Source: an uncultured virus (IMG/VR IMGVR_UViG_3300046507_000599)
Taxonomy: Duplodnaviria; Heunggongvirae; Uroviricota; Caudoviricetes
Strand: one strand, 5' to 3'
IMG/VR virus record: IMGVR_UViG_3300046507_000599
Length of the DNA stretch: 20,000 bases
The position numbers and the translations under genes are program-made. Below the pieces are notes generated by a model. That model saw only the letters and a list, made by a program, of their open reading frames with translations. It searched no databases and was not told the origin of the DNA. Below, one piece after another: positions 1,254 through 17,435 of this stretch. Every line of letters begins with the position of its first letter. Positions within the stretch are counted from its first letter, which is position 1.

Positions 1254-1532
1254 TTAAAGTTTCTCTTTTACGTAAGGAAGCATGAGATGCAGGGCGGTGT
1301 CTTTCAGCTCACCGAACACCGCTTCGTCAACCTGGTCTAGTCGAAGATTGAACGAGGTTTCATGACCGCGAGCTCGGCCGTTTAAGTCCCAACTGATTTC
1401 AGGCTGCTCGCCTCCAACCAGAGGCACATATCCTACGAGCGTGTCAGTGCTTGCGGGATCAATACCATTGATTATCGCAGTGTGTCCGTTGCTGACTTTA
1501 ATTTCGATCGGCTTGATCGGGATGATCGGCAT
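1254..1532 (-). CDS. Accessory hypothetical protein (92 aa, MPIIPIKPIE...)
   Basis: Lies within ORF 1254-1703; ATG at 1532 is preceded by GGAG; the upstream extension overlaps a + strand leader. Confidence 0.6.
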   Translation of the reverse strand: MPIIPIKPIEIKVSNGHTAIINGIDPASTDTLVGYVPLVGGEQPEISWDLNGRARGHETSFNLRLDQVDEAVFGELKDTALHLMLPYVKEKL

Positions 1533-1718
1533 TTCACAACTCCATCTGTCACCGGCCCCATCGCCGGTCACCCGTAATACCCCAAACCAAACCAAATTGC
1601 CACCACCGGTCACGGAAGTGGGGGCGCCTGACTGGAGGTATCCACGAGTCACAAGCGCGCGATCGCCGAGGATTAAAACATGAGTCGAATTAGTAAAAAT
1701 CAATTAAAAATCTAAATT

Positions 1719-2621
1719 TCAATCACCCTTGTTAGCTTCAGACTTGTTAAAAAAAGCATTATCTCCAAACATTTCAAGATCATACCTAAAGGCCGCAATT
1801 GTTTCCGACGCCGCTGCTCGCTCGGGGTCATTGCGAAGTGACTTTTCTACTAGACTGTGTTGAGATGAGTTCATCTTGCCATACAGCTCAGATACTTCTC
1901 GTGCCTTACCGAACAGATACTGCGCAAATCCATCTGGCCAATAATAATTCGTAGGCGAAATCTTACCACCCTTAATAGAAACCCGACTTACTCGCATCTT
2001 ATTTGCCTGACTATGCTTGGCAAGTCCAAGCACTATGAATCTTGGTAATTTCGTGTACACCATAATCTCACCGTTCGTACTCACAAGTATATCCATATGC
2101 ATATTTCTTAGCAGGTAACGATTTATGTTCACAGGCACGCTTGCGTTAGTGGATTCTATGGGCTCCAGCGGAAAAAGATGCTGCTCATAAATTCCTGGGG
2201 TATTTGTCTTTCCAAGCAGAAAATCAGCAAGCCCCCTCAAAATAGATACTTCTGTATCGTTCTGTTGATCGCAAACTCTGGGATTCTTCTCGCGCATATA
2301 GCTAAGAGTGCGCCAACTCAAAGATGCGCAAAACTTTAAAAGCCATCCCTCATAACTAGCAGTATCATTCTCATTCTTTACGAACGGATAAAATATCTTA
2401 TTGGCAAACTCTCGCTCCCAGCCTGAGAAAAGCTGTTCGCAGCTTCCGCACAACCAATAGTCCTTAGCAATGTCTTGTGCCCGCCTATTAATATTTTCAC
2501 TTAGACGAATGTATCCAGTTGCAGACGTTTCCTTAACCCATTTGCCCACAAACTTTGGAATAAAGTGACTTAGCTTAAGCTCACCAGACACTCCGCATAA
2601 CTTGCATTCTCCTTGAGCCAT
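1719..2621 (-). CDS. Accessory HNH/His-Me-finger-like nuclease domain protein
   Basis: N-terminal CKLC...SHFIPK...LCGSCE pattern typical of zinc-binding HNH-like domains; AT-rich; antisense to the backbone. Confidence 0.65.
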   Translation of the reverse strand: MAQGECKLCGVSGELKLSHFIPKFVGKWVKETSATGYIRLSENINRRAQDIAKDYWLCGSCEQLFSGWEREFANKIFYPFVKNENDTASYEGWLLKFCASLSWRTLSYMREKNPRVCDQQNDTEVSILRGLADFLLGKTNTPGIYEQHLFPLEPIESTNASVPVNINRYLLRNMHMDILVSTNGEIMVYTKLPRFIVLGLAKHSQANKMRVSRVSIKGGKISPTNYYWPDGFAQYLFGKAREVSELYGKMNSSQHSLVEKSLRNDPERAAASETIAAFRYDLEMFGDNAFFNKSEANKGD

Positions 2622-2711
2622 GACTCACCCACTCTTTTATAGTCGAACTACTAATACCCCACTTCTACGAATCACGCCAGCCGGCGAGGCAATCGGCTGT
2701 CTGGAGCAATT

Positions 2712-3581
2712 ATGAATCCCTACCTGATCACCGGCCCGGCCCAGATCGGCATCAGTGGTGGTCGCACCAGCGGGCACATGGTCTACCAGATCCTCGAAGC
2801 GCACGGCGGTACCATGCCGCCAGATGTACACCTGTTCTTTCAGAACACCGGCAAGGAGCGCGAGGAAACGCTGATCTTTATCGATCAGATCGCCAAGCGC
2901 TGGAAAGTGAACATCGTATGGATGGAATGGTGCCGGGTTTATGGCCAGCCGGACGACGCGCCCTGGTACAAGCTGGTGGACTTCGAAACGGCCAGCCGCA
3001 ACGGCGAACCATTCACCATGATGCTCGAGTATTACGCCGGATACCGGAAGGCAGAGAAAAACCTGCCTCCGGTGCTGCCGAACTTCTCGAACAACATGTG
3101 CACCGCGTATTTGAAGGTGAAGATCGGCGAGAAACACATGCGCGCTTTGGGCTACACCGAGTGGGATTGCGTCGTCGGCATCCGGTACGACGAACCGAAG
3201 CGCTACCACCGCATGATGGCGGCCAACGATCGAGGCGGCACCCGATGGGACAACGTCTGCCCCTCCTACACCGCCGGCATCACCAAGGAGGATGTCGGTT
3301 CGTTCTGGTCGAACCAGCCCTTCGATCTGGGACTGGATTCCGACTTCGGCAACTGCGATCTGTGCTGGAAGAAAAACGAAGGCAAGTTGATCAAGACCAT
3401 CATGGATGATCCGTCGCGGGTAATCTGGTGGTCAGGAACAGAGGAACGATTCGGCCAGGTGTTCCGGCAGGACCGTGCAGATTACAAAACCATGGGCTGG
3501 TCTGCCGAGCAACGCTCCCGGCAGACCGATTTTGATTTCGAATACCTAGCCGAAGATATCGACTGCTTCTGTGGCGACTAG
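2712..3581 (+). CDS. Phosphoadenosine phosphosulfate reductase-family (PP-loop) protein
   Basis: ISGGRTSG PP-loop, FQNTGKE, CTAYLK, GIRYDE, NCDLC and terminal CFCGD; GGAG RBS. Confidence 0.82.
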   Translation: MNPYLITGPAQIGISGGRTSGHMVYQILEAHGGTMPPDVHLFFQNTGKEREETLIFIDQIAKRWKVNIVWMEWCRVYGQPDDAPWYKLVDFETASRNGEPFTMMLEYYAGYRKAEKNLPPVLPNFSNNMCTAYLKVKIGEKHMRALGYTEWDCVVGIRYDEPKRYHRMMAANDRGGTRWDNVCPSYTAGITKEDVGSFWSNQPFDLGLDSDFGNCDLCWKKNEGKLIKTIMDDPSRVIWWSGTEERFGQVFRQDRADYKTMGWSAEQRSRQTDFDFEYLAEDIDCFCGD

Positions 3582-4003
3582 CCCTTCCAGGCAGAAACAA
3601 GACCAGTCAAGGCACCGATGATGCCCACGGTTATGCCAAACCAGTAGGTCACTTTTTCCCTAGCTTGCTTGTTGGCTTCCCACAGATGAGCCTTCACATG
3701 CTTTATGCCGTTCTCGGACAGGTAAAGGATGGGCTCGAGCGGAATTGGATAATCCCATTCGATTCGATCATACATTGAAGGATCGGACTTACTTGGAAGC
3801 GGAACGGCTGCCATCTTCGCTTTGTGTTCGTAATACTTCGAGTGGATCTGATCTAAGCGGCGCCAAGCATGATCGAGATCAGTGTAATAGGAACTAGTGA
3901 AGCCGCCCTCTGGGTCGGGATCGGGATTCGGGTCGTACTCCTCCATCTTTGCGATCACGTGCTCTTGGCGCCATAACGCAAGTCGGTACTCAAAAAAATT
4001 CAA
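3578..4003 (-). CDS. Accessory protein with C-terminal transmembrane helix
   Basis: 141-aa ORF ending in YWFGITVGIIGALTGLVSAW; stop overlaps the convergent gene. Confidence 0.65.
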   Translation of the reverse strand: MNFFEYRLALWRQEHVIAKMEEYDPNPDPDPEGGFTSSYYTDLDHAWRRLDQIHSKYYEHKAKMAAVPLPSKSDPSMYDRIEWDYPIPLEPILYLSENGIKHVKAHLWEANKQAREKVTYWFGITVGIIGALTGLVSAWKG

Positions 4004-4054
4004 CTCTATAAGCCTCCGAAAATTTCGGCAGAACTATACGTCTGGGAACCCCCT

Positions 4055-4978
4055 ATGCCTACAGCAATCGATTTGTTCGCCGGACTCGGCGGATGGTCCA
4101 CCGGTGCCCGCAACGCTGGCGTCGAAGTTATTTGGGCAGCCAACCACTGGCCGGTCGCGGTCGAATGGCACAGCGCCAACCACCCGGAAGCCATTCACAT
4201 CTGCCAAGATCTGCATCAAGCGGACTGGTCGAAGGTGCCCGCTCACGACATCATGCTCGCGTCACCCTGCTGTCAGGGCCATTCGAAAGCTCGGGGCAAG
4301 AAGTCAGGCAATGCGCAGCATGACGCATCCCGCTCGACAGCATGGGCAGTTGTGTCCGCCGCCGAGTTCCACAAGCCCGAAGTAGTGCTGGTCGAGAATG
4401 TCGAAGAGTTCACGGACTGGGCGTTGTATCCAGCCTGGTCACAGGCCATGGCAGCGCTGGGCTACATGATTGCGCCGCACGTAGTCGACTGCGCCGACCT
4501 CGGCGTGCCACAGCACCGAGTTCGCCTATTTCTGGTCTGCACCCGCAGCAAATCGCCGCTGATGCTCGAACTGCACCGGCGCCAGCACGTTCCCGCCGCC
4601 AGTTTCCTGGAGTTCAACGATGGGCGCTGGTCACCAATCGAGAAACCGGGACGTGCACAGGCCACCCTCGACCGGGTTCGCAATGGTAGAGAGCGATTCG
4701 GCGATCAGTTCATCATGCCCTACTACGGCAAGGGCTCAGGGCTAACCGGTCGCGATATCAACCGTCCGATCGGCACCATCACAACGCTGGATCGCTGGGC
4801 GCTGGTTCGCGGCGATGAAATGCGGATGTTGTCGGCAAACGAGGCGCTCGCAGCAATGTCGTTTCCCAAAGAGACCCTTCGTCCCGACAACCACCGACTG
4901 ACCATGCACATGGCCGGCAACGCTGTGCCGCCGCTCGCTGGGCAGCGGATAATCGAAGCTCTATTCGAAGCGGCATGA
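4055..4978 (+). CDS. DNA (cytosine-5) methyltransferase
   Basis: Motif I DLFAGLGG, catalytic SPCCQ, ENV, QHRVR and C-terminal GNAV. Confidence 0.93.
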   Translation: MPTAIDLFAGLGGWSTGARNAGVEVIWAANHWPVAVEWHSANHPEAIHICQDLHQADWSKVPAHDIMLASPCCQGHSKARGKKSGNAQHDASRSTAWAVVSAAEFHKPEVVLVENVEEFTDWALYPAWSQAMAALGYMIAPHVVDCADLGVPQHRVRLFLVCTRSKSPLMLELHRRQHVPAASFLEFNDGRWSPIEKPGRAQATLDRVRNGRERFGDQFIMPYYGKGSGLTGRDINRPIGTITTLDRWALVRGDEMRMLSANEALAAMSFPKETLRPDNHRLTMHMAGNAVPPLAGQRIIEALFEAA

Positions 4979-4987
4979 CGCAATAAA

Positions 4988-5236
4988 TTATCGCGTAGAT
5001 ATCAGTTGGTTCCGATTTGCATCAAACGTCGACAAGAGCGGTGCAGGATCGGAAATCCTGTTTATAGCTACCCAGGCTCGAGTGCGCTCCACATCGAACG
5101 ACTGCTTTAGCCCGGACATAGAATCGACCAGTGTTCTTGAAATCCGATATCGGCCGCAGTCCACACAATTGCGCTCATGCCAATCGCCACCAGACTCGTA
5201 GGTTACCGCGGGCTCTTTGCAAATTAGGCAAGCCAT
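4988..5236 (-). CDS. Small zinc-ribbon protein (CxxC...CxxC)
   Basis: CLIC and CVDC; GGAG RBS; near-identical copy at 15600-15848. Confidence 0.7.
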   Translation of the reverse strand: MACLICKEPAVTYESGGDWHERNCVDCGRYRISRTLVDSMSGLKQSFDVERTRAWVAINRISDPAPLLSTFDANRNQLISTR

Positions 5237-5326
5237 CTATACCACTCCTTGTAAATGACACTTCAACTGTAGCTGACCCCTCAACAACCTCCACCGCCCG
5301 GGCATGCCCCGGCATAGGTATCCGTC

Positions 5327-5983
5327 ATGCCCACAGAAAACCGTATCGACTGTCCAGCACTGCACAAGCGCAGCAAAAGCTACCCGTTCGGCGACCGCGT
5401 GCCGCGCACGGTGAAGATGTTCACGACCGTCGTGGCTGATCCGATGCCGGGAATTACATCCGCTCTCTTGCAGGGTGATGGCCCGATCTGCCCTGAAGGC
5501 CAAATCTTTCCCGTATGGACCAACAGCCACGGCGCGGTAGCGGCTGTGCTGCCAGATGGCAAGCATCTTGGTCTGCGCCCTGCTGAGTTCGAGGTCGAGA
5601 CCTGGCATGATCTTGCGCCGGCGCCAGCGTCAGGCGTCACGCTTCAGGCCGACCGGGAAAACCGTATCTACTTGGCTGGACCGATGACGGGAATCAAGGA
5701 CTTCAATTTCCCAGCCTTCAATACGATGGCAGCCAAGCTCCGCGCCCGAGGCTACACCGTCGCAAACCCGACTGAGCATGGTGTCGTTGAAGGCGCCAAA
5801 TGGGGCGACTACATGGCTTACGACCTGACGCGTCTGGGCTTGTGCGGAATGGTCGCCCTTCTGCCGAACTGGGAAGAATCAAAGTGCGCTCGCCTCGAAG
5901 TGCATATAGCCGAGCAGCTCGGTATGGCCATCGTGGATGCCCATGATCTGGTATCGATGCCGGAATTACGCCGCGATGCCTGA
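5327..5983 (+). CDS. DUF4406-domain protein with extra N-terminal domain
   Basis: C-terminal RIYLAGPMTG..FNFPAF..NP..LPNWEESK.ARLE matches the standalone gene at 16534-16857. Confidence 0.8.
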   Translation: MPTENRIDCPALHKRSKSYPFGDRVPRTVKMFTTVVADPMPGITSALLQGDGPICPEGQIFPVWTNSHGAVAAVLPDGKHLGLRPAEFEVETWHDLAPAPASGVTLQADRENRIYLAGPMTGIKDFNFPAFNTMAAKLRARGYTVANPTEHGVVEGAKWGDYMAYDLTRLGLCGMVALLPNWEESKCARLEVHIAEQLGMAIVDAHDLVSMPELRRDA

Positions 5984-6009: not shown

Positions 6010-6663
6010 CTATTTGACCAATCGGAGGTAAGGCCGCTCTTTCGGCCCTAAGAGAAATTCTTCCTTGGTCGCAGCAAGAAGTTTCGATAATTTTTGAAGG
6101 TAGATGGAGCAAAGCTCATCCGTACTCAGATCCCTGAGTTCCTGCGGAATATTCTCTGGCAAGCTATGGAAAACTTGGCGGACCTCTCCAATAGATTTGG
6201 GGATACTGACGTAGTACTTAATCGATTCACCACCACCCAAGTCCATCTCCCATCCAGATCCACCGTTCTGATCACCCATGAAAAATGATGTGGATTCGAA
6301 CGGCGGCTTTTCTAACTTTGCTAAGTCATTGCCGTTGAGACTGTGGATCGTTGCTGATACAGAAACATCTAAGCGCCCCTGCTTTTCCAGATTGTTTCTG
6401 GCCTCGACGAAATAACGCATAAGAGGATCGGCACGCATTTGATCTTGAAATGGTGCGTACCAGCTATTGAATCTGGACTCACCAACAATGGATCGCAGAT
6501 TTTGTATAACAAATGTCACGGATCTTCCGAAGACCAAGACGTTCCTCAAGCCCGCTGATCGCGCTGAGGGATCGCCACTTTTGAGAACATTAAGTCCAAA
6601 ATAGGCGGTATCGAGCACTTGCTCGGCACGCTTGATCGCGAGATGTGTCAACTCTGCATCCAT
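6010..6663 (-). CDS. Accessory hypothetical protein (217 aa)
   Basis: Long AT-rich antisense ORF filling the gap between backbone genes. Confidence 0.75.
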   Translation of the reverse strand: MDAELTHLAIKRAEQVLDTAYFGLNVLKSGDPSARSAGLRNVLVFGRSVTFVIQNLRSIVGESRFNSWYAPFQDQMRADPLMRYFVEARNNLEKQGRLDVSVSATIHSLNGNDLAKLEKPPFESTSFFMGDQNGGSGWEMDLGGGESIKYYVSIPKSIGEVRQVFHSLPENIPQELRDLSTDELCSIYLQKLSKLLAATKEEFLLGPKERPYLRLVK

Positions 6664-6777
6664 TTTTTTGGCCAGCCTTTTCCTAGGATTTACGAATGTA
6701 ACCCCGGAATTGAAAGGCTAAAAGAAAAAACCTCCCCTCCCCCTTCAAAGTCAGCCGCTATAGCGGCAGGAACCCCT

Positions 6778-7272
6778 ATGGTCGATGCAAACATTCACAA
6801 CTCGTTGAACACGCTCACGGCAAGCCAGATGGCCAAGCTGCTGGTGATGCATTACGGAATCGATAAGTTCGACTACAAGTACGACAGCCTAGGCGATGCA
6901 CCAAATGGCCTCGTTACGCTTGAAGATTTGGCGTCCATGTCCGGCGAGGATCTGGATCAGCTTTACGAGGAGAGTTCGCACGATGATGCGGTGAACGAGG
7001 TGCGTTACAGCGCAGTAAACTCCCCCGGAATCCCGAGTTGGTGCCACTACAGTTGGGAGCGCAACTACGAGGTCGAGGTGAAGGCCTTCATCCTGCCCGA
7101 TGGCCGTGCTCTTGCTTTTTGTGAGATGAGCGGCGGCGGCAAGCATGCCGAGCCAGACGCCTACCCTTGGGTTGAAGAGGCCAAATTCATCAAGTTCTCT
7201 TGCGTCGAAGAGCGCGTCATCAAGACTTACAAATTTGAGGATATTCCAGAAGCCTCAGAGGTGACGCCATGA
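6778..7272 (+). CDS. Phage hypothetical protein (acidic)
   Basis: ATG 6778 follows a hairpin leader and AGGA RBS; the ORF-track extension upstream overlaps the antisense gene. Confidence 0.72.
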   Translation: MVDANIHNSLNTLTASQMAKLLVMHYGIDKFDYKYDSLGDAPNGLVTLEDLASMSGEDLDQLYEESSHDDAVNEVRYSAVNSPGIPSWCHYSWERNYEVEVKAFILPDGRALAFCEMSGGGKHAEPDAYPWVEEAKFIKFSCVEERVIKTYKFEDIPEASEVTP

Positions 7273-7325
7273 TCTTCGCCCCGCTCTACATGGCCTACCT
7301 CATCTACAAGGGGCCGTGGCGATGA
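7269..7325 (+). CDS. Putative 18-aa coupled peptide MIFAPLYMAYLIYKGPWR
   Basis: ATGA overlaps with both neighbours; GAGGTG RBS just upstream. Confidence 0.5.
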   Translation: MIFAPLYMAYLIYKGPWR

Positions 7326-7828
7326 CCGGAATGATCGGCGCCCGCGCGGTGCCGCCGAAGCACAAGAGCGTCGAGTGGTATACGCCGGCCTGGATCTTCG
7401 ACCGGCTGGGATTGCAGTTTGACCTCGACCCATCCAGCCCGCACGACTACGTAACGGCGGTACCAGCGAAGACGAAGTACACGATCTTCGATGACGGCCT
7501 GTCGAAGGAATGGTCGGGCCGGGTGTGGATGAACCCACCATACGGCCCCGACACAGGGTTCTGGATGCGCCGCCTGATTGCTCATGGCAACGGCATTGCG
7601 CTGGTGTTCAGCCGCACGGATGCCGAGTGGTTTCAGGAAGCAATGGCCAGTGCATCGTCGACCCTGTTGATCAGGGGTCGGATTGCCTTTGTGCCCGGCC
7701 ACGAAAACAGCCACAAGAAAGGCCGATCAGGTGCTGGCAGCGCGATGTTTGCCTTCGGCGATGAATGCGCGATCGCGCTACAGAGCCTGGCGGATCTCGG
7801 AGTTCTGGTTCCCCGAATCGCCGACTGA
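7322..7828 (+). CDS. Phage DNA N6-adenine methyltransferase (phage Dam family)
   Basis: EWYTP, FDLDP, WMNPPY, RTD..WF and RGRIAF motifs; start could be 7322 or 7331. Confidence 0.88.
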   Translation: MTGMIGARAVPPKHKSVEWYTPAWIFDRLGLQFDLDPSSPHDYVTAVPAKTKYTIFDDGLSKEWSGRVWMNPPYGPDTGFWMRRLIAHGNGIALVFSRTDAEWFQEAMASASSTLLIRGRIAFVPGHENSHKKGRSGAGSAMFAFGDECAIALQSLADLGVLVPRIAD

Positions 7829-7895
7829 CCTGTCTTCGATGTAACCCCTCCCCCAACTCAACAGCCTGCCGGTGTGCGGCGGGCGAGGATTCGTT

Positions 7896-8255: not shown

Positions 8256-8300
8256 CCCATCCCACCTTCTGCCGCCACGCGCGGCATGGAGCAATACCTC

Positions 8301-8543
8301 ATGGAAACCGAAATCCTCTCTGACGAGGAGCTGGCCGAACTCACCGGCTACAAGGCCAGGGCCTACCAACGCCGCTGGCTAATTGATCGCCAGTGGGTGT
8401 TCGTCGAAAGCCGCGGCAAACGTCCACTGGTGGGTCGGATGTATGCCCGCATGAAGCTGGGCATGATCAGCCCGACCATTGCCGATCCAAACCCGCCGCC
8501 GGCCGCGCCGGCATGGACGCCAGACTATTCGCGAGTGAACTGA
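8301..8543 (+). CDS. DUF4224-family excisionase-like protein
   Basis: LSDEELAELTGYK...QRRWL...GKRPLV; directly upstream of the integrase; GGAG RBS. Confidence 0.82.
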   Translation: METEILSDEELAELTGYKARAYQRRWLIDRQWVFVESRGKRPLVGRMYARMKLGMISPTIADPNPPPAAPAWTPDYSRVN

Positions 8544-8544
8544 T

Positions 8545-9594
8545 ATGCGCCCCCGCAAGACCGAGCACCAGCACCTTCCCCCTCGGATGTACAAGCGCTC
8601 ACGGAAGCGCAAAAACGGTAGTACATGGACCGCGTATTACTACCGCGACCTGCTCGGCAACGACATCCCTCTGGGCAAGGATCTTGACAAGGCCAGGCTG
8701 AAGTGGGCCGAGCTCGAAGCCAAGGAAAAGCCCCTCGACCTGCGCACCATGAAGGGAATCTTCGACCGGTACATTCGTGATGTGGTGCCAAAGAAAGCAC
8801 CGCGCACGCAGAAGGACAACTTGGCGGAAATCAAGCAGCTTCGGCCGATGTTCGATAGCGCGCCGATCGACTCGATCACGCCAGCAACGATTGCTGGCTA
8901 CCGAGACGCAAGATCGGCGAAGGTCCGGGCGAACCGTGAGATCGCTACCCTCTCCCACATTTTCAACATTGCCCGGGAGTGGGGGCTAACGACGAAGGAA
9001 AACCCCTGCCAAGGTGTGCGCAAGAACAAGGAGACGCCGAGGGACTATTACGCGAATGATGTGGTTTGGGAGGCGGTTTACAAGAAGGCAGCTCAGGAGC
9101 TGAAGGAAGCGATGGACCTAGCCTATCTGACCGGGCAAAGGCCGGCAGATGTGCTGGTTATGCGGAAGGATGATGTTGAAGGCGGATATCTGACTGTTCA
9201 GCAGAACAAGACGCACAAGAAGCTGCGCATTCAGATGACGACCGCCGGAGAGGCGAACAGCCTGGGAGTTTTGATCGCGGCGATCACAGAACGAAACGCC
9301 GCGCACGTTTCGTGTTACCTGATCATCAACCGGAGCGGTAAACGGATGACTGCGACGATGCTGAGGAAGCGATGGGACGCGGCGCGAGAGAAGGCGAAAC
9401 TGGAAGCTCTTGAGCAGGGAGACGAGCTGCTGGCTAAGCGGATCGGTGAATTCCAGTTCCGGGATATTCGGCCGAAAGCGGCGTCGGAAATCAGCGATGT
9501 TGGTGACGCTAGCCTGTTGCTCGGGCACACAAAAGGCGACATTACTGAGCGGGTTTATCGCCGTGTCGGCGCGATCGCCAAACCCTCAAAATAG
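8545..9594 (+). CDS. int: Tyrosine recombinase/phage integrase
   Basis: LTGQRPAD (Arg), QQNKT (Lys), FRDIR, LLGH and RVYRR (Tyr); adjacent to att. Confidence 0.95.
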   Translation: MRPRKTEHQHLPPRMYKRSRKRKNGSTWTAYYYRDLLGNDIPLGKDLDKARLKWAELEAKEKPLDLRTMKGIFDRYIRDVVPKKAPRTQKDNLAEIKQLRPMFDSAPIDSITPATIAGYRDARSAKVRANREIATLSHIFNIAREWGLTTKENPCQGVRKNKETPRDYYANDVVWEAVYKKAAQELKEAMDLAYLTGQRPADVLVMRKDDVEGGYLTVQQNKTHKKLRIQMTTAGEANSLGVLIAAITERNAAHVSCYLIINRSGKRMTATMLRKRWDAAREKAKLEALEQGDELLAKRIGEFQFRDIRPKAASEISDVGDASLLLGHTKGDITERVYRRVGAIAKPSK

Positions 9595-9606: not shown

Positions 9607-9720
9607 GTTCCATAACTCGAAACACGCCCCTTGTAGAATGCGGTCTGTAGAGGTGCTGCTAAACAAAAGTATTGGAACGAAAAAACGTCTGACGCCGCGT
9701 ATTCGGCGGCTTTCCATAGC
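9607..9720. promoter_or_regulatory. Candidate integrase arm-type sites (GTTCCATAAC-like repeats)
   Basis: GTTCCATAAC ~9607, inverted GTTCCAATA ~9670-9678, TTCCATAGC ~9712; all three recur in B at ~19397, ~19460 and ~19497. Confidence 0.45.
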
Positions 9721-9779
9721 GGTCTTGAAAACCGTCGACTGTAACAGGTCCATGAGTTCGAATCCCATCGCCTCCGCCA
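9719..9779 (+). repeat. att site: 3' fragment of tRNA-Ser(UGA), junction of A and B
   Basis: Anticodon arm GCGGT-CTTGAAA-ACCGT, long variable arm, GTTCGAATC T-loop and GCCA end; no 5' acceptor strand or D-arm. Confidence 0.9.
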
Positions 9780-9789
9780 TATTTGGTAC

Positions 9790-9821
9790 CGACAAAGCCC
9801 TGATTATTCAGGGCTTTGTCG
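9790..9821 (+). terminator. Intrinsic terminator-like hairpin after the tRNA 3' end
   Basis: 14-bp perfect stem CGACAAAGCCCTGA / TCAGGGCTTTGTCG with TTAT loop, followed by TTTCT. Confidence 0.8.
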
Positions 9822-9946
9822 TTTCTGGGGTTTGAGGTTTCCACCGCGCTGGTTTAGGCGTTACAAAATTTTCTGCTTTTTCTCCTTTCTCCGGCGTCCT
9901 GCCAAACGCAAAAAATTCTTCACGTAACACGGTGCTACGCTGGGTT

Positions 9947-11382
9947 GGACACGAAGCCGAGGCACTTGCTCGGCCGATTCTAGAAGGACGAATTGGCGAG
10001 GACCTGTTTCCCGTCGTCGGCACCGAAGGTGATCACTGGCATCCCTCGATGGCTGCACAATCCTCGGCGACGCACTGTTCGAACACAAAATGTGGAACGA
10101 GCAGCTCGCCGCCGAGGTTCACGCCGGCAACCTTGATGCGCACTACTACTGGCATCTCGAACAGCAGCTGCTGGTGAGCGGCGCCGAGAAGGTAATCTTC
10201 GTCTGCTCCGACGGTACCGAAGAAAACTTCGTTTCGATGGAATACACGCCGGTGCCGGGCCGGACTGCAACACTCGTAGCAGGCTGGAAACAGTTCCAAG
10301 CCGACCTACTGGACTTCACTCCCGCCGAGGTCGTGCCGGAGGCCGTCGGCAAAACGCCGGAATCATTGCCAGCGCTGCGCATCGAAGTTACCGGCATGGT
10401 AACCGCCAGCAACCTGGAGCAATTCAAAGCTCACTCCCTCGCTGTTTTCGGCTCGATCAACACCGAGCTGCAAACGGATCAGCACTTCGCCGACGCAGAA
10501 AAAGCGCTCAAGTGGTGCGGTGATGTCGAGGAGCGTCTGGAAGCTGCCAAGCAGCACGCGATGAGCCAAACCGAAAGCATCGACGCACTGTTCAAGACGA
10601 TCGATGACATCGCGGCGGAGGCACGGCGCAAGCGCCTAGAGCTGAACAGTTTGGTAAAAGCCCGCAAGCTCAGCATCCGTGAAGACATCGTCATGGATGC
10701 GGCCAAGGCACTGCAGGCCCACATTGACCAGATCAACGCTTCACTGGGCGGCAAAGCGCGTATGCCGGCGGTGCCTGCGGATTTCGCCGGAGCCATCAAA
10801 GGCAAGAAGACGATCAGCAGCTTGCGCGACTCTGCCGACTCCGAACTGGCGCGAGCGAAGATCGCTGCAAGCCAAATCGGCGACAGCATCCGGAGTAACT
10901 TGGCCAGCCTGGACGAACTCGCCGCCGACTACCTTTTCCTCTTCAACGATACGCAGCAATTGGTGATGAAGGCGGACGACGACCTGATCGCGCTGATCAA
11001 GGTGCGTATTTCGGAACACCAGAAGGCGGAGGAGCAGAAAGCCGAAGCGCAGCGTGAACAGATCCGTCAGGAGGAGCTGATGCGAATCGAGGACGAGGCG
11101 AACCCCAACACACCGTTTGAGCCTGCGCCAGTCGCAAGCCCGGCGCCGGTGAGAGCCTCCTCACCGATTCAGCCTGCATCGAAGCCAGCGACCACAACCG
11201 CGGTGCCGGCGAACCTGCAAGCTGAGGTGTTCGATCTGGAAGAGCTGATCAAGGCAGTTGCCTACGGCCAGGCGCCTATCTCGGTACTGACCGTCAGCTG
11301 GGAAACCCTCGACGCACTGGTCGCCGAACAAGGCGCCAAGTTCAGCATGGCGGGCGTGAGGCTGGTCAAGGTGGCCGCATGA
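9947..11382 (+). pseudogene. YqaJ-like phage exonuclease with long helical C-terminal region; 5'-truncated and frameshifted
   Basis: GHEAEALARP...GTEGD (9947-10033) shifts frame at ~10034 into LASLDG...FEHKMW (motifs II/III); no start or N-terminus; the 10090-11382 part is open. Confidence 0.8.
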
Positions 11383-11621
11383 TCAGCCTGAACCTCAACG
11401 CAGTTCGTGAAAAGCAGACTGAGTCGGAACGGATCGCCGCTGCGATGGCTGACTTTTGGGCGCATCCCGGCGGCAGCTTCAAAGAGTTGCCGCCGGCTCG
11501 CATGAAGCCAAGGCCTGCGCGGCGGGACTGGGTAGATCCCGAAACGGTCCTCAAGCGGCGCCCGAAACCGATATCGGCCGCTGACCGCAGGGCTCTGCGC
11601 AAAATGGCGGATGCGATATGA
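11379..11621 (+). CDS. Conserved phage hypothetical protein (homolog of 29-274)
   Basis: ATGA overlaps; shared C-terminal half. Confidence 0.8.
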   Translation: MISLNLNAVREKQTESERIAAAMADFWAHPGGSFKELPPARMKPRPARRDWVDPETVLKRRPKPISAADRRALRKMADAI

Positions 11622-12564: not shown

Positions 12565-13509
12565 TTATTCAGCCGCAAATATTATTCCTTCAATCATTTG
12601 GAGCGGTCTATTTAAATCGAGTCGCCAACCACTTAAATTAGGAGCCCGCGATTGAGCTTCATACTTGACCAGGGTTTCCGAGCAAAAGTCAACAGCAGGC
12701 AGCACAGTATCAAAAACGCTATACATTGTTTTTAGTTCTTCGCCCCGCGTTTGAATTTTGCACTCACCAAAAATGCTCAACTTCCCAAAATTGTCGGACG
12801 CTTCTTGAAATTCCTGAAAGACCCATTCCCTTTCACTGCGCAAAGAGCATTTGGCCACTGAGCCGTCCGACAACTTAAATTCCGCCATGTGCAACAAAAG
12901 ACAAAATGAGATGAGAATTTTCGATCTGTAAGCGTTCAGATCATGTTCATTAAATTGTATTTCAGTTTTTCTCAGCACCTCGAATAAATCATTCATAAAC
13001 TCATCTGAACTGAATACTGGCTCAACCTTAATGAACCGCAACAAATAGACTATCAAATCAAGCTTTGCTTGACTAACGCCTTCCTTTATCATGCAGACAT
13101 TTTTTACCTTATCCTCTTTACATATATTATCAACAATAGACCCTAGCTTTTGAGCAGAACATTTCAGCTTATATTTTAAGTCTTCCTCAGAGCATTTTTT
13201 TACCTGATACCTTAGCAGCCTCTTAACATATAAGGGGAAACCTTTAATATCTAGAGATTGGCTACCGTCTGCCAGAAAGTCATTGAAAAATTTGAGACTA
13301 AGATAAAATGAGTCTATTGATTCATTTGTCAAACCGCGATCACGGGTATCTTTGTGAGCGACGAAATCCGCCGCTTCCCTGAACACCTTGTGATCTCCAG
13401 CGTACGCCCTCAATCGCATAAAAAGCATTTCGACATCAAGCTCATCAAAATTGCCGCTGGAAATTTTATCGATAGTTTTCTGAGCTTTGATTCTTTCAAT
13501 TAGTTTCAA
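12565..13509 (-). CDS. Accessory hypothetical protein (~314 aa)
   Basis: Long AT-rich antisense ORF; likely TTG start at 13509 after GGAG (ORF track extends to 13542). Confidence 0.75.
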   Translation of the reverse strand: MKLIERIKAQKTIDKISSGNFDELDVEMLFMRLRAYAGDHKVFREAADFVAHKDTRDRGLTNESIDSFYLSLKFFNDFLADGSQSLDIKGFPLYVKRLLRYQVKKCSEEDLKYKLKCSAQKLGSIVDNICKEDKVKNVCMIKEGVSQAKLDLIVYLLRFIKVEPVFSSDEFMNDLFEVLRKTEIQFNEHDLNAYRSKILISFCLLLHMAEFKLSDGSVAKCSLRSEREWVFQEFQEASDNFGKLSIFGECKIQTRGEELKTMYSVFDTVLPAVDFCSETLVKYEAQSRAPNLSGWRLDLNRPLQMIEGIIFAAE

Positions 13510-13610
13510 GACTAACTCCAGCGTCTTTCTGATACGACACAAATACCCCCCTCCTACGAATCACGCCAGCCAACGGGGATCTTCGTTGCGAATCGAGTAA
13601 TTTTCCGAAT

Positions 13611-14276
13611 TTACGAGCCCTTGGTGTCTTGTCGCTGGAACTTTTTCGAGAGTTTTGGAAACAACAATCCGCTACCAAACCCAAGATCATTTTTTGTATC
13701 AACCCAAGCATGTTCAAGTTCTGCTCTCAGTAAGTCGCGATATTCTTTTATCTTTAGTAGAGGCTTTTCGGTTGGACTTTGGTATGCCACCTTAATTGCG
13801 ATTCGATTGGCGTCACCACCAAATTTTATTATTTTTCTAGAGCGATCATCGTCTCGACTTAGAAGAAGATTAACTCTTGCTCGAAGCTGCGACATCCTAG
13901 AGCATGCTTTGTAGTATTCATCAGAACCTTTGAAGCCCGTCTGCTTCGAGTTCATATTGACAACGTAAGTCATCAAAGATATCAACTCCGCTGCCGCCTC
14001 TCTAAGCTCTGCCATCCAATGATGCCTAAAATTGCTTAAATTGCCCCGAATTTGGTTTTTCTGAACCCCGACCGTTAACCAAGCCACTAAGATTGCAACT
14101 ACTACCCCAGCTCCAGCAGGGATAACGGTTGCCCAATCTGTGTCCGAATCCATATGTACATATATCGGTAATTCTTTCGAACCCACATGAACTTCATTGC
14201 CGACTTGCTTACCCAGCACTTGCCCGTCATATTTGATATCAGCGGCGTTAAGTTCGAATGATTTAGGTAGATCCAT
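13611..14276 (-). CDS. Accessory single-pass membrane protein (~221 aa)
   Basis: AT-rich antisense ORF with hydrophobic WATVIPAGAGVVVAILVAWLTVGV; start uncertain (14276 or 14324). Confidence 0.7.
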   Translation of the reverse strand: MDLPKSFELNAADIKYDGQVLGKQVGNEVHVGSKELPIYVHMDSDTDWATVIPAGAGVVVAILVAWLTVGVQKNQIRGNLSNFRHHWMAELREAAAELISLMTYVVNMNSKQTGFKGSDEYYKACSRMSQLRARVNLLLSRDDDRSRKIIKFGGDANRIAIKVAYQSPTEKPLLKIKEYRDLLRAELEHAWVDTKNDLGFGSGLLFPKLSKKFQRQDTKGS

Positions 14277-14313: not shown

Positions 14314-14418
14314 ATGGCCATCACTTACGGAAGCATCTGCTCCGGCATTGAGGCGGCAACACTTGCATGGAAGCCGCTCGGCATGCGCATGCGCATGCCC
14401 CGTTTCGACGGGATCTGA
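14314..14418 (+). pseudogene. N-terminal stub of a second C5-cytosine methyltransferase
   Basis: AAGGA RBS then MAITYGSICSGIEAATLAWKPLG (motif I of a phage Dcm subfamily); collapses into a (GCATGC)x3 repeat and stops after 34 aa. Confidence 0.7.
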
Positions 14419-14481
14419 ATGGGCCTTCTCCTCCAAGAGAAGACCCAACGTATCAGCCAAATTTTACATCGCTACCGCCGA

Positions 14482-14565
14482 TCATCCTGGCCAAAGCCGG
14501 AGCAATGCAGCAATCAACGCCAAAACTGCGATCAACACGTCAAGCCATTCACATACCTGCGCCAT
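14482..14565 (-). CDS. 27-aa hydrophobic peptide MAQVCEWLDVLIAVLALIAALLRLWPG (type I toxin-like)
   Basis: GAGGTG RBS just upstream of the ATG; single hydrophobic helix; fills an otherwise empty gap. Confidence 0.6.
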   Translation of the reverse strand: MAQVCEWLDVLIAVLALIAALLRLWPG

Positions 14566-14666
14566 CCCACACCTCAATAGTTGTTTGGACTCCTTGCGTA
14601 GGGAGATGGCGAACGCGAACACATAAATTTATTCAACCGTTCGTAAAGGCCCGGAAAGGATCCCGC

Positions 14667-15590
14667 ATGCTCACAACAATTGACTTTTTTTCTGGTTTCG
14701 GCGGTTGGACGCGCGGCGGCAAGGACGCCGGGCTCAATGTCTTATGGGCTGCCAACCACTGGCCTGAGGCTGTTGAGTGGCACACCCGCAACAACCCGGA
14801 GACCATCCACGCTTGTCAGGATTTGCACCAGGCGAACTGGGCCGATGTGCCGAAGCACGACGTTATGCTCGCCTCACCATGCTGCCAAGGGCACACGAAG
14901 GCTCGCGGCAAAGCTGCCAGCAACCCTCAGCACGACAACTCGCGATCGACAACGTGGGCACCGGCGCAAAACGCGGAGGTCAACCGGCCGGAGTTCGCGG
15001 TGATCGAGAACGTACCGGAGTTCATGGACTGGATTCTCTACCCCGCATGGGCTGACGCGATGCAGCGGCTTGGCTACGCACTGGCGCCGCACATCGTGGA
15101 CTGCGCCGACCTCGGCGTGCCGCAGCACCGCGTGCGCTTGTTCATGGTGTGCTCGCGCAGCAAGGCGCCGTTGCACTTGCAACTCCCCGGCTACCGGCAC
15201 GTGCCCGCCCGCGAGATTATCGACTTCGACGCCGGCAAGTGGTCGCCGATCAACAAGCCAGGCCGCGCCGCCTCGACGCTGATCCGGGTGAAGAATGGCA
15301 GCGAGCGCTTTGGCGATCGTTTCGTCATGCCCTACTACGGATCTGGCTCCGGCCTCACCGGCCGCAGTCTAGACCGCCCGATTGGCACCATCACAACGCT
15401 GGATCGCTGGGCGCTGGTTCGCGGCGATGAAATGCGGATGTTGTCGGCAAGCGAGGCGCTCGCAGCAATGTCGTTTCCCAAAGAGACCCTTCGTCCCGAC
15501 AACCACCGACTGACCATGCACATGGCCGGCAACGCTGTGCCGCCGCTAGCTGGGCAGCGGATAATCGAAGCTCTATTCGAAGCAGCATGA
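14667..15590 (+). CDS. DNA (cytosine-5) methyltransferase (homolog of 4055-4978)
   Basis: AAGGA RBS at the ATG 14667; same 307-aa length; DFFSGFGG, SPCCQ, ENV, QHRVR, GNAV. Confidence 0.92.
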   Translation: MLTTIDFFSGFGGWTRGGKDAGLNVLWAANHWPEAVEWHTRNNPETIHACQDLHQANWADVPKHDVMLASPCCQGHTKARGKAASNPQHDNSRSTTWAPAQNAEVNRPEFAVIENVPEFMDWILYPAWADAMQRLGYALAPHIVDCADLGVPQHRVRLFMVCSRSKAPLHLQLPGYRHVPAREIIDFDAGKWSPINKPGRAASTLIRVKNGSERFGDRFVMPYYGSGSGLTGRSLDRPIGTITTLDRWALVRGDEMRMLSASEALAAMSFPKETLRPDNHRLTMHMAGNAVPPLAGQRIIEALFEAA

Positions 15591-15599: not shown

Positions 15600-15848
15600 T
15601 TATCGCGTAGATATCAGTTGGTTCCGATTTGCATCAAACGTCGACAAGAGCGGTGCAGGATCGGAAATCCTGTTCATAGCTACCCAGGCTCGAGTGCGCT
15701 CCACATCTAACGACTGCTTTAGCCCGGACATAGAATCGACCAGTGTTCTTGAAATCCGATATCGGCCGCAGTCCACACAATTGCGCTCATGCCAATCGCC
15801 ACCAGACTCGTAGGTTACCGCGGACTCTTTGCAAATTAGGCAAGCCAT
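15600..15848 (-). CDS. Small zinc-ribbon protein (copy of 4988-5236)
   Basis: 3 aa differences from the copy in A. Confidence 0.7.
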   Translation of the reverse strand: MACLICKESAVTYESGGDWHERNCVDCGRYRISRTLVDSMSGLKQSLDVERTRAWVAMNRISDPAPLLSTFDANRNQLISTR

Positions 15849-15952
15849 CTATACCACTCCTTGTAAATGACACTTCAACTGTAGCTGATCCCTCAACAAC
15901 CTCCACCGCCCGAGCATGCCCCGGCATAGGACGCCCCATACCCACAGAAAAG

Positions 15953-16537
15953 ATGAAGGCCTATCACGTTGGTGAAGGCTCCGAAGGTGAGCACATCATC
16001 ACGTTCGCAACCAACAGCGCCACGGCGCGCCGCGAGGGCGGCAATGAACTGAACCTGACCTTCGAAGAGGTGGAATTCTGCCGGCGCGCGCCTTGGGCTG
16101 ACGAGTTTGTCGGTCAGCGGTTCATCCCGGCCAAGGCGTACCACGCCAATGGCTGGTGGCTGTACTGCAACAACTGTGGGACTGAGCTCTACGAGGATGC
16201 CGAAAACGATGACGGCCATCCGCTCACGATCATCTACGACGGCCGGCACGCTTACTGCGATCAGGACTGCAAAGACTCGCGCGACAAGCTGATCGCCGAT
16301 GCGAATGCCAAGGGCGAAGCCTTCAAGGCGAAGGTGCTGGCCGAGCGTCCGGACCTCACTTTCGACAACTTCAAAATCGGCTATCCGTGGATTGTCATGT
16401 CCGCCACGTTCAAATTTCCGGGCTGCCAGTACGGTGGGTCGGTCAACGACCAGGAGGACAGCGGCGATCTGACCTGGTACGTGGCCCAAGGCGACAAGGC
16501 GGCTTGGGACTTCTACCAGCAGGAGCGTGCAGCATGA
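15953..16537 (+). CDS. Phage hypothetical protein with Cys motifs
   Basis: CNNC and CDQDC; ATGA overlap with the next gene; ancestral start at 15938 appears mutated to ATA. Confidence 0.72.
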   Translation: MKAYHVGEGSEGEHIITFATNSATARREGGNELNLTFEEVEFCRRAPWADEFVGQRFIPAKAYHANGWWLYCNNCGTELYEDAENDDGHPLTIIYDGRHAYCDQDCKDSRDKLIADANAKGEAFKAKVLAERPDLTFDNFKIGYPWIVMSATFKFPGCQYGGSVNDQEDSGDLTWYVAQGDKAAWDFYQQERAA

Positions 16538-16857
16538 AGCGCATCTACCTCAGCGGCCCTATGACTGGCCTGCCAGAACTGAACTTCCCCGCGTTCCACG
16601 CGATGACCACCCAGCTCCGCGCCGCCGGCCATGCTGTCACCAACCCGGCTGAGTTGAACCCCGACGGCGGAAGCTGGACCGACTGCATGCGCCGCGACAT
16701 TGCCGCGCTGATGGACTGCGACACCGTGGCGAGGCTTCCTGGCTGGCACACCTCGAAAGGCGCCCAGCTGGAAGTCCTGATCGCCGAACACCTCGGCATG
16801 ACGGTTGTGAATGCCCATGATCTGGTTTCGATGGAGATTGCACGATACGTGACATAA
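16534..16857 (+). CDS. DUF4406 domain protein
   Basis: MKRIYLSGPMTGLPELNFPAF...NPAE...LPGWHTSKGAQLE. Confidence 0.85.
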   Translation: MKRIYLSGPMTGLPELNFPAFHAMTTQLRAAGHAVTNPAELNPDGGSWTDCMRRDIAALMDCDTVARLPGWHTSKGAQLEVLIAEHLGMTVVNAHDLVSMEIARYVT

Positions 16858-16889
16858 AAACGCCGCAAGGATTTAAATCCCTCGCGGCG
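16856..16889 (-). terminator. Intrinsic terminator for the antisense cargo gene
   Basis: Minus strand CGCCGCGAGGGATTTAAATCCTTGCGGCG followed by TTTTT. Confidence 0.65.
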
Positions 16890-16919
16890 CGAGTTGTTGA
16901 TTGCCTATGAATACTTTTG

Positions 16920-17435
16920 TTATGCGGAAAAGTAGTCAATTACTTCGGCAACTGTTTCTTTTGTCAGAACCGACTTATTCGGCCCAGAGCCTTTTTGTGC
17001 GCATTCAAACTTATAACTCGCCAATTTTGCATTTTCCGCCTCTTCAGTTAGGAGACGAAGATCTTCTTCTAAGAGCTGAGTCGCATCACCGCTGCGCACT
17101 AATGACCTCTCGGGCATACCAGTGAAACGTGGAAGAACTCGAACATCGTTCTTCTTGCTGTCAATCAATACGCCAAACCCATGATAGACGCCAATATAGC
17201 GTTCTTCAGCGCTAGGCAAGACGAGTGCTATTTTTAAGTCTTTGTATTGACCCTCTGCACCGGCGGCTGTTTTGGTAACTACGAAATCATTAACCTCTAA
17301 GTAACTCATAAAGTTACTCAGCACTTCTTCATTGATTTGATTTCGAAAACCTTCGTGCAACTCTCCAACCTTCTTAGCAGCAGAGTCCACTTGCTCCCGC
17401 ACTTCAGCCAATTTTTTTGCTTGCTGTAACGACAT
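16920..17435 (-). CDS. Accessory hypothetical protein with coiled-coil N-terminus
   Basis: GGAG RBS before ATG 17435; AT-rich; has its own terminator. Confidence 0.75.
   Translation of the reverse strand: MSLQQAKKLAEVREQVDSAAKKVGELHEGFRNQINEEVLSNFMSYLEVNDFVVTKTAAGAEGQYKDLKIALVLPSAEERYIGVYHGFGVLIDSKKNDVRVLPRFTGMPERSLVRSGDATQLLEEDLRLLTEEAENAKLASYKFECAQKGSGPNKSVLTKETVAEVIDYFSA

Follow-up and report, generated by a model that had tools for sequence, protein, structure and literature searches.

Short intergenic leaders bound slots for single antisense genes in the integrase arms of a lambdoid Pseudomonas prophage

Two integrase arms and their antisense genes

The window, that is, the whole 20,000-nucleotide stretch of DNA analysed here, consists of two integrase arms (A and B) of a P. 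fluorescens-group lambdoid prophage, arranged in tandem. The backbone features are as follows.

2712..3581, plus strand: PAPS-reductase-like gene (phrog_424, E 5e-36)
4055..4978, plus strand: C5 DNA methyltransferase gene of arm A (PF00145, E 2e-39)
5327..5983, plus strand: DUF4406 gene
8301..9594, plus strand: DUF4224 excisionase and tyrosine integrase genes of arm A
9720..9831, plus strand: right attachment-site-like repeat with the 3' part of a tRNA and a terminator hairpin, found again at 19506-19616
9943..11382, plus strand: arm B, beginning abruptly within a RecE-like exonuclease gene (phrog_7655 positions 113-549)
14314..14400, plus strand: stub of a second methyltransferase gene
14667..15590, plus strand: C5 methyltransferase gene of arm B, its 3' end near-identical to that of arm A
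18100..19384, plus strand: excisionase and integrase genes of arm B, the integrase 98% identical to that of arm A

The tRNA fragment in the repeat at 9720..9831 was read by eye as Ser; ARAGORN found no whole tRNA there, the Rfam search of the window yielded nothing beyond a weak tRNA match, and the sole integrases are those of the phage. Arm B is a deletion remnant of a prophage arm with its junction at about 9943-9946, although this junction may instead reflect a chimeric assembly. In its backbone there are a deletion and a stub, and one start and one stop have been lost, yet the cargo there is still full-length; the stretch 14389-14655 matched nothing. Over 4800-5299, a stretch that takes in the end of the methyltransferase gene, cargo A4 and the start of leader d, the two arms share 98-100% identity, beside only 60-73% over 4045-4699, which indicates a recent block exchange between them.

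The minus strand of these arms carries eight genes, referred to below as cargo, and a second copy of one of them.

1254..1532, minus strand: cargo A1, 92 aa, GC 0.50, no family
1719..2621, minus strand: cargo A2, 300 aa, GC 0.43, putative N-terminal zinc-binding HNH-like domain, large widespread family
3578..4003, minus strand: cargo A3, 141 aa, GC 0.50, one C-terminal hydrophobic segment, family in 6 arms
4988..5236, minus strand: cargo A4, 82 aa, GC 0.51, two CxxC pairs, recurrent small family with 23 genes in the arms
6010..6663, minus strand: cargo A5, 217 aa, GC 0.47, PF26900 family, predicted HEPN-like helical bundle with a beta insert
12565..13509, minus strand: cargo B1, 314 aa, GC 0.40, conserved N-terminal E-x2-D-x-V-A-H-x3-R motif
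13611..14276, minus strand: cargo B2, 221 aa, GC 0.43, one hydrophobic segment, no family
15600..15848, minus strand: copy of cargo A4 with 3 amino-acid changes and zero synonymous changes
16920..17435, minus strand: cargo B3, 171 aa, GC 0.44, small family (named members from Pseudomonas), facing leader c (17507-17546)

All eight are real, mutually unrelated genes. The nine reading frames are open up to these stops, as the first-pass annotation had it, and the eight proteins fall into eight separate clusters. An independent composition-based caller picked all eight and missed the copy at 15600-15848, whose twin at 4988-5236 scored 6.0 against a threshold of 6. The same caller preferred longer starts for 12565-13509 and 13611-14276; the TTG start at 13509 is nevertheless supported, because homologues begin MK there, and the 221-aa form starting at 14276 has an entry in the protein collection and aligns over its whole length with two 77% homologues. 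Compared with homologues, synonymous change far exceeds non-synonymous change in seven of the eight; no homologue pair of 3578-4003 passed the filter for this comparison, and its product matches phrog_19471 over the full length (E 5.6e-27). Antisense genes of at least 70 aa occur at 0.49 per kb in the arms versus 0.06 per kb in the upstream 4 kb of the same operon, a density in the arms above chance. The genes had been called mostly AT-rich, which is true of five (GC 0.40-0.47) but not of 1254-1532, 3578-4003 and 4988-5236 (0.50-0.51); the backbone lies at 0.53-0.63.

Single-gene modules divided by short conserved leaders

Short conserved intergenic leaders, rather than the cargo, define the slots that hold these genes, and the operon is shown to be a series of single-gene modules divided by a few conserved leaders of 35-90 nt that are common to many unrelated backbone genes. 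The leaders in the window are given below.

1533..1640: leader f, a conserved intergenic element whose minus strand carries promoter-like hexamers, a hairpin and a Shine-Dalgarno (SD) sequence leading into the start of A1
2650..2692: leader a, the AATACCCC leader
5285..5320: leader d, 66 copies, antisense gene at left in 32
6735..6770: leader b, 75 copies, antisense gene at left in 45
7853..7892: leader c, its arm A slot without cargo
8262..8292: leader e, before the excisionase gene, slot empty
13537..13581: shortened copy of leader a, between B1 and B2

Related arms were collected as 108 sequences, from which five without a called anchor gene and six duplicates were removed to leave 97. Leader f is found in 34 copies in 34 arms, 26 of them with an antisense gene at left (21 families), and leader a in 76 copies in 71 arms, with an antisense left neighbour in 62 (41 families) and 35 different right-hand neighbours. 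For leaders a and f together, 88 of 110 copies have an antisense gene on the left, compared with 19 of 137 for leaders c and e, and the slot after phrog_5439 is occupied by an antisense gene in 82 of 93 arms (56 families). Of 302 antisense genes, only 140 lie within 250 nt of one of the window leaders, and such a leader also follows 187 of 603 sense genes. When the 95 relatives were counted over each part, 31-65 covered the leaders, 0-3 the cargo DNA and about 3-21 the adjoining variable backbone genes. Cargo is thus absent or replaced at the same place in relatives, the presence/absence pattern of a prophage moron; close homologues of A1 occupy the same slot in two other phages. Within the window, six of the eight cargo starts lie directly left of a long conserved leader, in agreement with the earlier remark that most start just upstream of one; of the other two, the start at 4003 faces a short leader and that at 14276 the 87-nt methyltransferase stub. 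Right of leader f, a backbone gene that has lost its start survives as a short remnant reaching to about 1660. Since cargo families move between slots, the 'fixed positions' of the first-pass annotation belong to the leaders, not to the genes. Likewise, 6010-6663 and 16920-17435, proposed to share an equivalent slot, do both follow DUF4406 but adjoin different leaders and different next genes.

The leaders also have a conserved face on the cargo side. An SD sequence and an ORF start lie 28-55 nt downstream of the AATACCCC motif in 82 of 113 non-redundant copies, against 9 of 278 for the control (among the matches listed). The cargo behind this motif belongs to at least 51 families, 22 of them absent from the first 97 arms, with which the motif-scan loci partly overlap. 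On the cargo side of leaders a and f the spacing to the start is near-constant, a hairpin is conserved, and an SD sequence is present in 56 of 61 cases. The putative -10 elements of both lack the last T, and neither was flagged by a promoter scan that returned 7 sites versus 10.5 expected. Only A3 among the eight has a sigma-70-like site (4061-4033) directly upstream, and only B3 is followed by a clear terminator, a strong one at 16890-16860 on the minus strand. A sigma-54 promoter was rejected on a spacing misfit judged by eye. An RsmA-type site in the cargo-side hairpin loop was set aside as the loop varies between GGA and GGG.

Defence content of the cargo pool and candidate functions

The 97 arms yielded 146 antisense families, of which seven were dropped as possibly outside the arm. 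The remaining 139, 88 of them seen once, give a Chao1 estimate of about 281, and a complete arm holds on average 3.4 antisense genes of at least 70 aa. The proposed library of single-gene cassettes in hotspots is therefore well supported, and larger than had been suggested. Defence-type domains were assigned by our own classification to 10 of 139 slot families (nine with PADLOC effector-type hits plus putAbiC; about 7%, pooled over slots) versus 2 of 139 sense families (p=0.035), after methyltransferase, PAPS reductase, homing-type HNH and HTH hits had been removed by hand and with one family labelled solely by a Pfam scan that skipped the sense control. Generic ABC ATPase, RT, SEC-C, TPR and small methyltransferase hits were not scored as defence. 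Raw PADLOC hits are rarer in antisense (12/146) than in sense families (24/139). A hydrophobic segment is encoded by 56 of 146 antisense families as against 6 of 139 sense families. The slot labels comprise DUF2971/PDC-S31 (3), SLATT_5, RelA/SpoT PDC-S33, NucC-like DUF6602, FRG PDC-S15, DUF4145/PD-T7-4 and a weak CBASS-effector match; several (PDC-S) denote candidate defence systems, and putAbiC matched 4 of the 10 members tested from a family of 11 genes. A published rule calls a locus a defence hotspot once it has 50 or more cargo families and 3% or more of them match defence databases (bioRxiv 10.1101/2024.10.15.618418); here there are 139 families and about 7%, pooled over slots in our classification.

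The label of candidate defence genes, applied earlier to all eight, is supported for the pool and, by fold or neighbourhood, for 6010-6663 and 1719-2621, but no significant defence-profile hit was found among the eight. Pfam, PADLOC and NCBIfam profile searches of the eight proteins gave no match (PADLOC 2.0: none at E<=0.001), apart from a sub-threshold match of the 82-aa protein (4988-5236) to a methyltransferase C-terminal profile (E 0.002). PDB sequence searches with three cargo alignments returned nothing significant.

Cargo A5 (6010-6663) is predicted to be a HEPN-like homodimer. The best structure match of its model (pLDDT 88.5) is the HEPN protein 4nqf, with Z 9.8 (rmsd 3.9, 122 aligned), a value within the ordinary helical-bundle range and followed at rank 2 by the non-HEPN p130Cas (Z 8.9). 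Further HEPN chains, among them 1ufb, 8xdj, Csm6 and AbiV, stand in the top 50; Foldseek of the model against the PDB found no match. As in the HEPN superfamily (PMC3710099), the model has a helical bundle with R then N at a helix end and a symmetric, here predicted, dimer with the motif loop in the interface; A5 differs in an invariant K in place of the catalytic H, a beta-sheet insert and no HEPN profile match. In 78 sequences, R89 and K94 of the R89-N90-x3-K94 motif are invariant and N90 nearly so, and the R-x4-6-H motif is absent, with no conserved His. The same source mentions H-less HEPN families with a second His (PMC3710099), which was not seen in these 78 sequences. The homodimer scored 0.62 against 0.11 for the best control, with residues 92-97 in the interface and contacts agreeing at >=96% between runs (pLDDT >=85); 20 of 30 solved pairs attain the mark used, as does 1 of 23 single chains, and the score may reflect resemblance to solved HEPN dimers. 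Defence-specific neighbours occur in 5 of 34 loci by PADLOC and 7 of 34 with Pfam, as raw counts uncorrected for random neighbourhoods. A helicase-plus-HEPN pairing at four alphaproteobacterial loci was discarded, as two were checked and proved to be uvrB and the others were assumed so from the same length and hits.

For cargo A2 (1719-2621), an alignment of 85 sequences points to an HNH-like domain: C6, C9, H19, D50, C61 and E62 are invariant, C58 nearly so, and the zinc-binding CxxC pairs flank a conserved His. We take these Cys and His residues to be the HNH core. Profiles match few members of the family (HNH_5 5/85, HNH_2 4/85, best E 4e-4); among Atlas neighbours, a putative HNH name occurs at 0.98 and HNH_5 on 13% of the 0.93 cluster, and a sequence search of the PDB with the family gave no match. 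Defence co-localisation of homologues, a check suggested at the outset, was seen for A2, where 3 of 10 loci adjoin Shedu plus Ppl, a TIR effector and PDC-M51A, but was sparse for A5 and for B1 (1/18 loci by PADLOC, again a raw count).

The confident model of B1 (12565-13509) showed no fold match against 48,161 chains compared whole, not as single domains (best Z 4.4); Foldseek found nothing in the PDB or BFVD, and the best Atlas value was only 0.79. An assignment of B1 to HEPN by eye is unsupported, given this Z and no profile likeness to 6010-6663. The 82-aa A4 family was present in one of five genomes checked, there inside a prophage only, so a chromosomal origin is not supported.

Because the slot pool of related phages includes known anti-phage types, several of the eight are plausible candidate phage-defence genes. 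In our judgement, 6010-6663 probably acts against phages, and for 1719-2621 the balance tips just slightly the same way. The case for 12565-13509 falls somewhat short of even and that for 13611-14276 a little further short; such a role is unlikely for 3578-4003 and 16920-17435 alike, quite unlikely for 1254-1532 and still more so for 4988-5236.

Interpretation and comparison with known systems

Taken together, these are probably moron hotspots in the early (recombination-to-integrase) operon of lambdoid Pseudomonas phages, filled from a mixed and partly defensive pool. With the early operon repressed, the leader would direct transcription leftward, and the lysogen would then make the cargo. 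Homologous recombination carried out by the phage recombinase, with leaders or flanking genes as the paired sequences, may exchange the modules, whereas the arrival of new cargo may be rare, illegitimate and frequently marked by stubs of backbone genes. A fair share of the larger AT-rich genes could guard the lysogen against other phages, by nuclease-type abortive infection (6010-6663 as a dimeric HEPN-like RNase, 1719-2621 as an HNH-like DNase) or at the membrane (13611-14276, 3578-4003), while the small recurrent genes probably serve some other role. A bolder version strikes us as rather unlikely: leaders a and f would be portable two-way plug-ins, with the backbone SD on one strand and, on the opposite one, a promoter, a 5' hairpin and a platform with an SD, capturing promoterless genes that are then shuffled by short-homology recombination, and the pool would comprise upwards of about 280 single-gene anti-phage factors, most of them unknown, including an R-N-x3-K HEPN-like RNase and a 314-aa protein of unrecognised fold.

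The cargo might instead be expressed morons that mostly modify the host or its general fitness (membrane, receptor, stress, regulation, lysis-lysogeny tuning), among which a defence minority has drifted in. About 93% of the 139 slot families lack a defence label, 38% of the antisense families encode a hydrophobic segment, and eight small, recurrent families, unlabelled by Pfam in those tested, account for 109 of 362 antisense genes; moreover, A5 homologues often stand alone beside housekeeping genes (uvrB, ribonucleotide reductase, RNase G, hisF). Yet membrane morons often work by superinfection exclusion too, and most of the labelled in-arm families are conflict domains. In a P4 hotspot, 6 of 8 loci of unknown type proved protective (PMC13586616). 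We give this reading a limited chance.

Neutral insertion is a further possibility, in which the slots are merely tolerated sites at module boundaries where antisense insertion leaves the early operon undisturbed, cargo is near-neutral and largely silent, and leaders owe their conservation solely to a part in translating or processing backbone mRNA. All leader copies found are in backbone orientation, many directly after a sense gene without cargo, and the promoter hexamers are poor. The conserved cargo side described above, purifying selection on the cargo families, the intact cargo of decayed arm B and the lack of cargo in most of the upstream part of the operon make it improbable. That some cargo consists of selfish toxins or of anti-defence genes, for prophage stability or lytic growth, seems highly improbable: HEPN, RelA/SpoT and PIN are toxin domains as well and the sense strand of the arms is rich in methyltransferases, but genes of the lytic phase ought to lie on the operon strand, and the cargo is solitary, without a constant partner.

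The leader motif offers a search handle for candidate anti-phage genes independent of homology. In environmental Pseudomonas, prophages protect but few of the genes have been assigned (PMC12894663); the slot genes form a ready test set, and the cultured relative PseuP_222 (OP626800), a lambdoid siphophage whose integrase arm carries leader f along with six hypothetical antisense genes, supplies a phage-host pair. The main text of the PseuP_222 paper (PMC10305613) contains none of the words 'moron', 'opposite' and 'defense'. Among mostly open-access main texts we found no paper describing leader-bounded slots; the PseuP_222 and phiAH14a supplements and Brenes and Laub 2025 may bear on this. The general concept of moron hotspots is already known, which limits the surprise.

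P2 and P4 hotspots are few per element and often multi-gene, and the P4 one adjoins cos, with genes in either orientation. They resemble the present slots in placing variable loci between conserved flanks, with known and unknown defence genes and rapid swapping, and in that defective elements retain the cargo (there, defence genes). The slots described here differ in their large number, in holding mostly one gene each, on the antisense strand, and in having short leaders as boundaries, with a known-defence share of only about 7%. Lambdoid morons are, as summarised in PMC3029335, extra ORFs with their own promoter and terminator, whereas a clear terminator follows only one of our eight. The mechanism proposed there for lambdoid mosaicism, exchange at short conserved boundary sequences, is likened to ours, and the leader slots are an unusually clear case for it; unlike in that model, one leader precedes up to 35 right-hand genes and also provides a cargo-side hairpin. 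A similar arrangement is that of terI (TERi) in Listeria comK prophages, a defence gene that likewise lies on the opposite strand in the early lytic module. It is transcribed in lysogeny from its own promoter; 96% of 149 prophages have kept this promoter, and five unrelated genes alternate behind it (bioRxiv 10.1101/2025.02.27.640495). The likeness claimed is one of arrangement only, and unlike terI, each arm here has several slot types, with at least 51 families behind a single leader.

Antisense genes and slots in the early arms

A phage early arm occurs twice in tandem in the window (A and B). Both arms close with a DUF4224 excisionase and a tyrosine integrase, followed by the 3' portion of a tRNA and its terminator. 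Named relatives are all Pseudomonas (26/26), the fluorescens group predominating, and the cultured lambdoid siphophage PseuP_222 shares this layout. All nine minus-strand ORFs of the first-pass annotation are present; an independent gene caller finds eight, which fall in eight different clusters:

1254-1532, minus strand: small gene
1719-2621, minus strand: zinc-binding, HNH-like N-terminus, with weak HNH matches
3578-4003, minus strand: one hydrophobic segment
4988-5236, minus strand: small gene (82 aa), with a second copy at 15600-15848
6010-6663, minus strand: HEPN-like candidate
12565-13509, minus strand: 29 homologues; modelled with confidence, structural comparison giving no fold match
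13611-14276, minus strand: one hydrophobic segment
16920-17435, minus strand: small family (n=13) with its own terminator

Purifying selection is seen in seven of these eight families. The description of the genes as mostly AT-rich holds clearly for five, whereas three lie near 50% GC.

We compared 106 related loci and the two window arms, giving 97 non-duplicate arms, 71 of them complete. Antisense genes (n=362) have a median GC of 0.50 and sense genes (n=641) a GC of 0.60, and antisense gene density within the arms is eight times that of the 4 kb upstream. Antisense families of at least 70 aa number 146, with 139 found within an arm and 88 singletons (Chao1 ~281). The slot after phrog_5439 carries an antisense gene in 82 of 93 arms, with 56 families represented. 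What stays in place is a set of short intergenic leaders, shared much more widely among the relatives than the variable genes that flank them. Each combines a C-rich tract with a GC hairpin and a Shine-Dalgarno sequence (SD) serving the next backbone gene. The earlier hotspot reading comes out strengthened.

Cargo also moves between places. Members of the 1719-2621 family immediately follow phrog_5439 in four phages and precede a methyltransferase in two, and the 12565-13509 family also occurs, again in antisense orientation, in a different phage type's baseplate region. In seven loci (L149, L205-L210) these homologues are antisense between baseplate genes, the gpV and gpJ sides having been checked in L149; this site is a second moron slot.

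Small ORFs were noted alongside. A hydrophobic 18-codon mini-ORF at 7269-7325 (plus strand) overlaps the stop of the previous gene and the start of the next; it has 39 copies in 39 arms, with 19 different genes on its right, and may be a coding linker. A second mini-ORF of ~26 codons has the same role in 21 arms. At 14482-14565 (minus strand), a hydrophobic 27-codon ORF lies within the stretch 14389-14655, whose remainder has no matches, and is possibly a cargo remnant or a small membrane peptide.

A proposed cargo-side platform in leaders a and f

Leaders a (2650..2692) and f (1533..1640) differ in sequence but have in common a minus-strand GGGGTATT with TGGC equally spaced upstream. It is usually followed by a CCGGCATGG(A/G)GCCGG hairpin (a regular expression finds it in 30/61 and 11/24 copies), then by an SD (56/61) and the cargo start. 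An antisense gene lies on the left in 88 of 110 copies of leaders a and f; with leaders c and e this holds for 19 of 137. A scan of IMG/VR anchored on the motif gave at least 113 non-redundant copies, overlapping the first arm set in part; among the copies listed, 82 of 113 have an SD and an ORF start 28-55 nt downstream, while the same rule within backbone genes is satisfied in 9 of 278. The ORFs behind the scanned motif represent at least 51 families, 22 of them new relative to the first set. In the window, the full hairpin form stands at 1532, and the spacing without the hairpin at 2621 and 13509. We infer that the platform is a promoter; a promoter scan of the window did not flag the a/f site, whose putative -10 lacks its last T.

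Exchange between arms and decay of arm B

Over 4800-5299 the two arms share 98-100% identity, a figure that falls to 60-73% in the upstream portion of the methyltransferase whose end lies in this block. Three amino-acid differences separate the two 82-aa cargo copies, with zero synonymous changes. This jump in identity, with the near-identical copies, shows a recent homologous block exchange that took the cargo gene along. The swapping would be done by a phage recombinase; exchange at boundary sequences has been proposed before (PMC3029335). Backbone stubs adjoining cargo (~1644-1660 and 14314-14400) suggest illegitimate insertion of new cargo.

Arm B begins abruptly at ~9945, within a RecE-like gene; the simplest reading is an older same-site prophage whose left part is missing. 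Its backbone is damaged (methyltransferase stub at 14314-14400, start lost at 15938, stop lost at 18044), yet its antisense genes are all full length. The integrases at 8545-9594 and 18335-19384 are both open and 98% identical (dN/dS 0.045), though the left part of arm B is gone. DNA past the first att repeat (9832-9946) is similar to post-att DNA in two other loci (L041, L047) and leads into the mid-recE junction with no evident microhomology at the join. Past the second att repeat lies one further ORF:

19833-19994, plus strand: 53-aa ORF with a hydrophobic N-terminus; weak Pfam matches only

Defence candidates within a mixed gene pool

Searches of the eight cargo proteins against Pfam, NCBIfam and PADLOC, the last proposed earlier as a check on each ORF, returned no labels; four have PHROG matches at E<=1e-4, all to families of unknown function. 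The 6010-6663 protein has 99 homologues, 98 with PF26900, scattered across several phyla. In structural comparison its confident model comes out closest to a HEPN protein (Z 9.8, rmsd 3.9, 122 aligned), with non-HEPN bundles scoring nearly as high. A homodimer is predicted with a score of 0.62 against 0.11 for the best control, a mark reached by 20/30 solved pairs and 1/23 single chains; contacts agree at >=96% between runs with pLDDT >=85, and the interface includes residues 92-97. The motif is R-N-x3-K; the protein may act like a HEPN RNase, but the HEPN motif test failed. In five loci (L113, L127, L129, L133, L136), homologues are solitary insertions set against the 3' end of a neighbouring gene, which is uvrB (checked in two) or encodes a ribonucleotide reductase. 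The 1719-2621 family counts 1,795 representatives at E<=0.001 and occurs on Bacillota and haloarchaeal plasmids as well.

As to co-localisation with defence genes, such neighbours occur in 3/10 loci for the 1719 family and, counting up to five nearest genes of at least 160 aa per locus, in 5/34 by PADLOC (7 when Pfam is added) for the 6010 family, but by PADLOC in only 1/18 (Fic) for the 12565 family, which also neighbours Schlafen AlbA_2 (two loci), DUF4238 (one locus) and integron-sized integrases (two loci). Eight defence genes is an overstatement: there is real support for two, another three or four are plausible candidates, and the small ones are doubtful.

Across the arms, PADLOC matches 12/146 antisense and 24/139 sense family representatives, the latter chiefly methyltransferases, PAPS reductases and homing-type nucleases. 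Effector-type labels alone, by our own classification, which sets aside methyltransferase, PAPS reductase, homing-type HNH and HTH hits, leaves out the conflict-like Pfam labels PIN_12, DUF4238 and DUF5677 and includes one antisense family labelled by a Pfam scan applied to the antisense side only, number 10/139 antisense against 2/139 sense (p=0.035). Hydrophobic segments (crude Kyte-Doolittle rule) occur in 56/146 antisense versus 6/139 sense families, and a set of eight small recurrent families accounts for 109 of the 362 antisense genes. The slot gene pool is, on this evidence, mixed.

On the sense strand, highly variable orphan DNA methyltransferases and PAPS-reductase-like genes (2712-3581, 4055-4978, 7322-7828, 14667-15590 and in related arms) suggest a hotspot for anti-restriction or DNA modification, interspersed among the antisense slots. 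A small backbone gene (29-274 and 11379-11621, plus strand) could be a phage transcription modulator; below the cutoff, its copy at 29-274 matches the RNA-polymerase-binding domain of SutA (E 1.5e-5).

A search of the accessible literature found no description of these leader-bounded slots. Hotspots are more mixed in content than islands according to the iLund4u study. The P2 and P4 hotspots serve as the general model, and the Listeria terI locus (bioRxiv 10.1101/2025.02.27.640495) is the nearest precedent.
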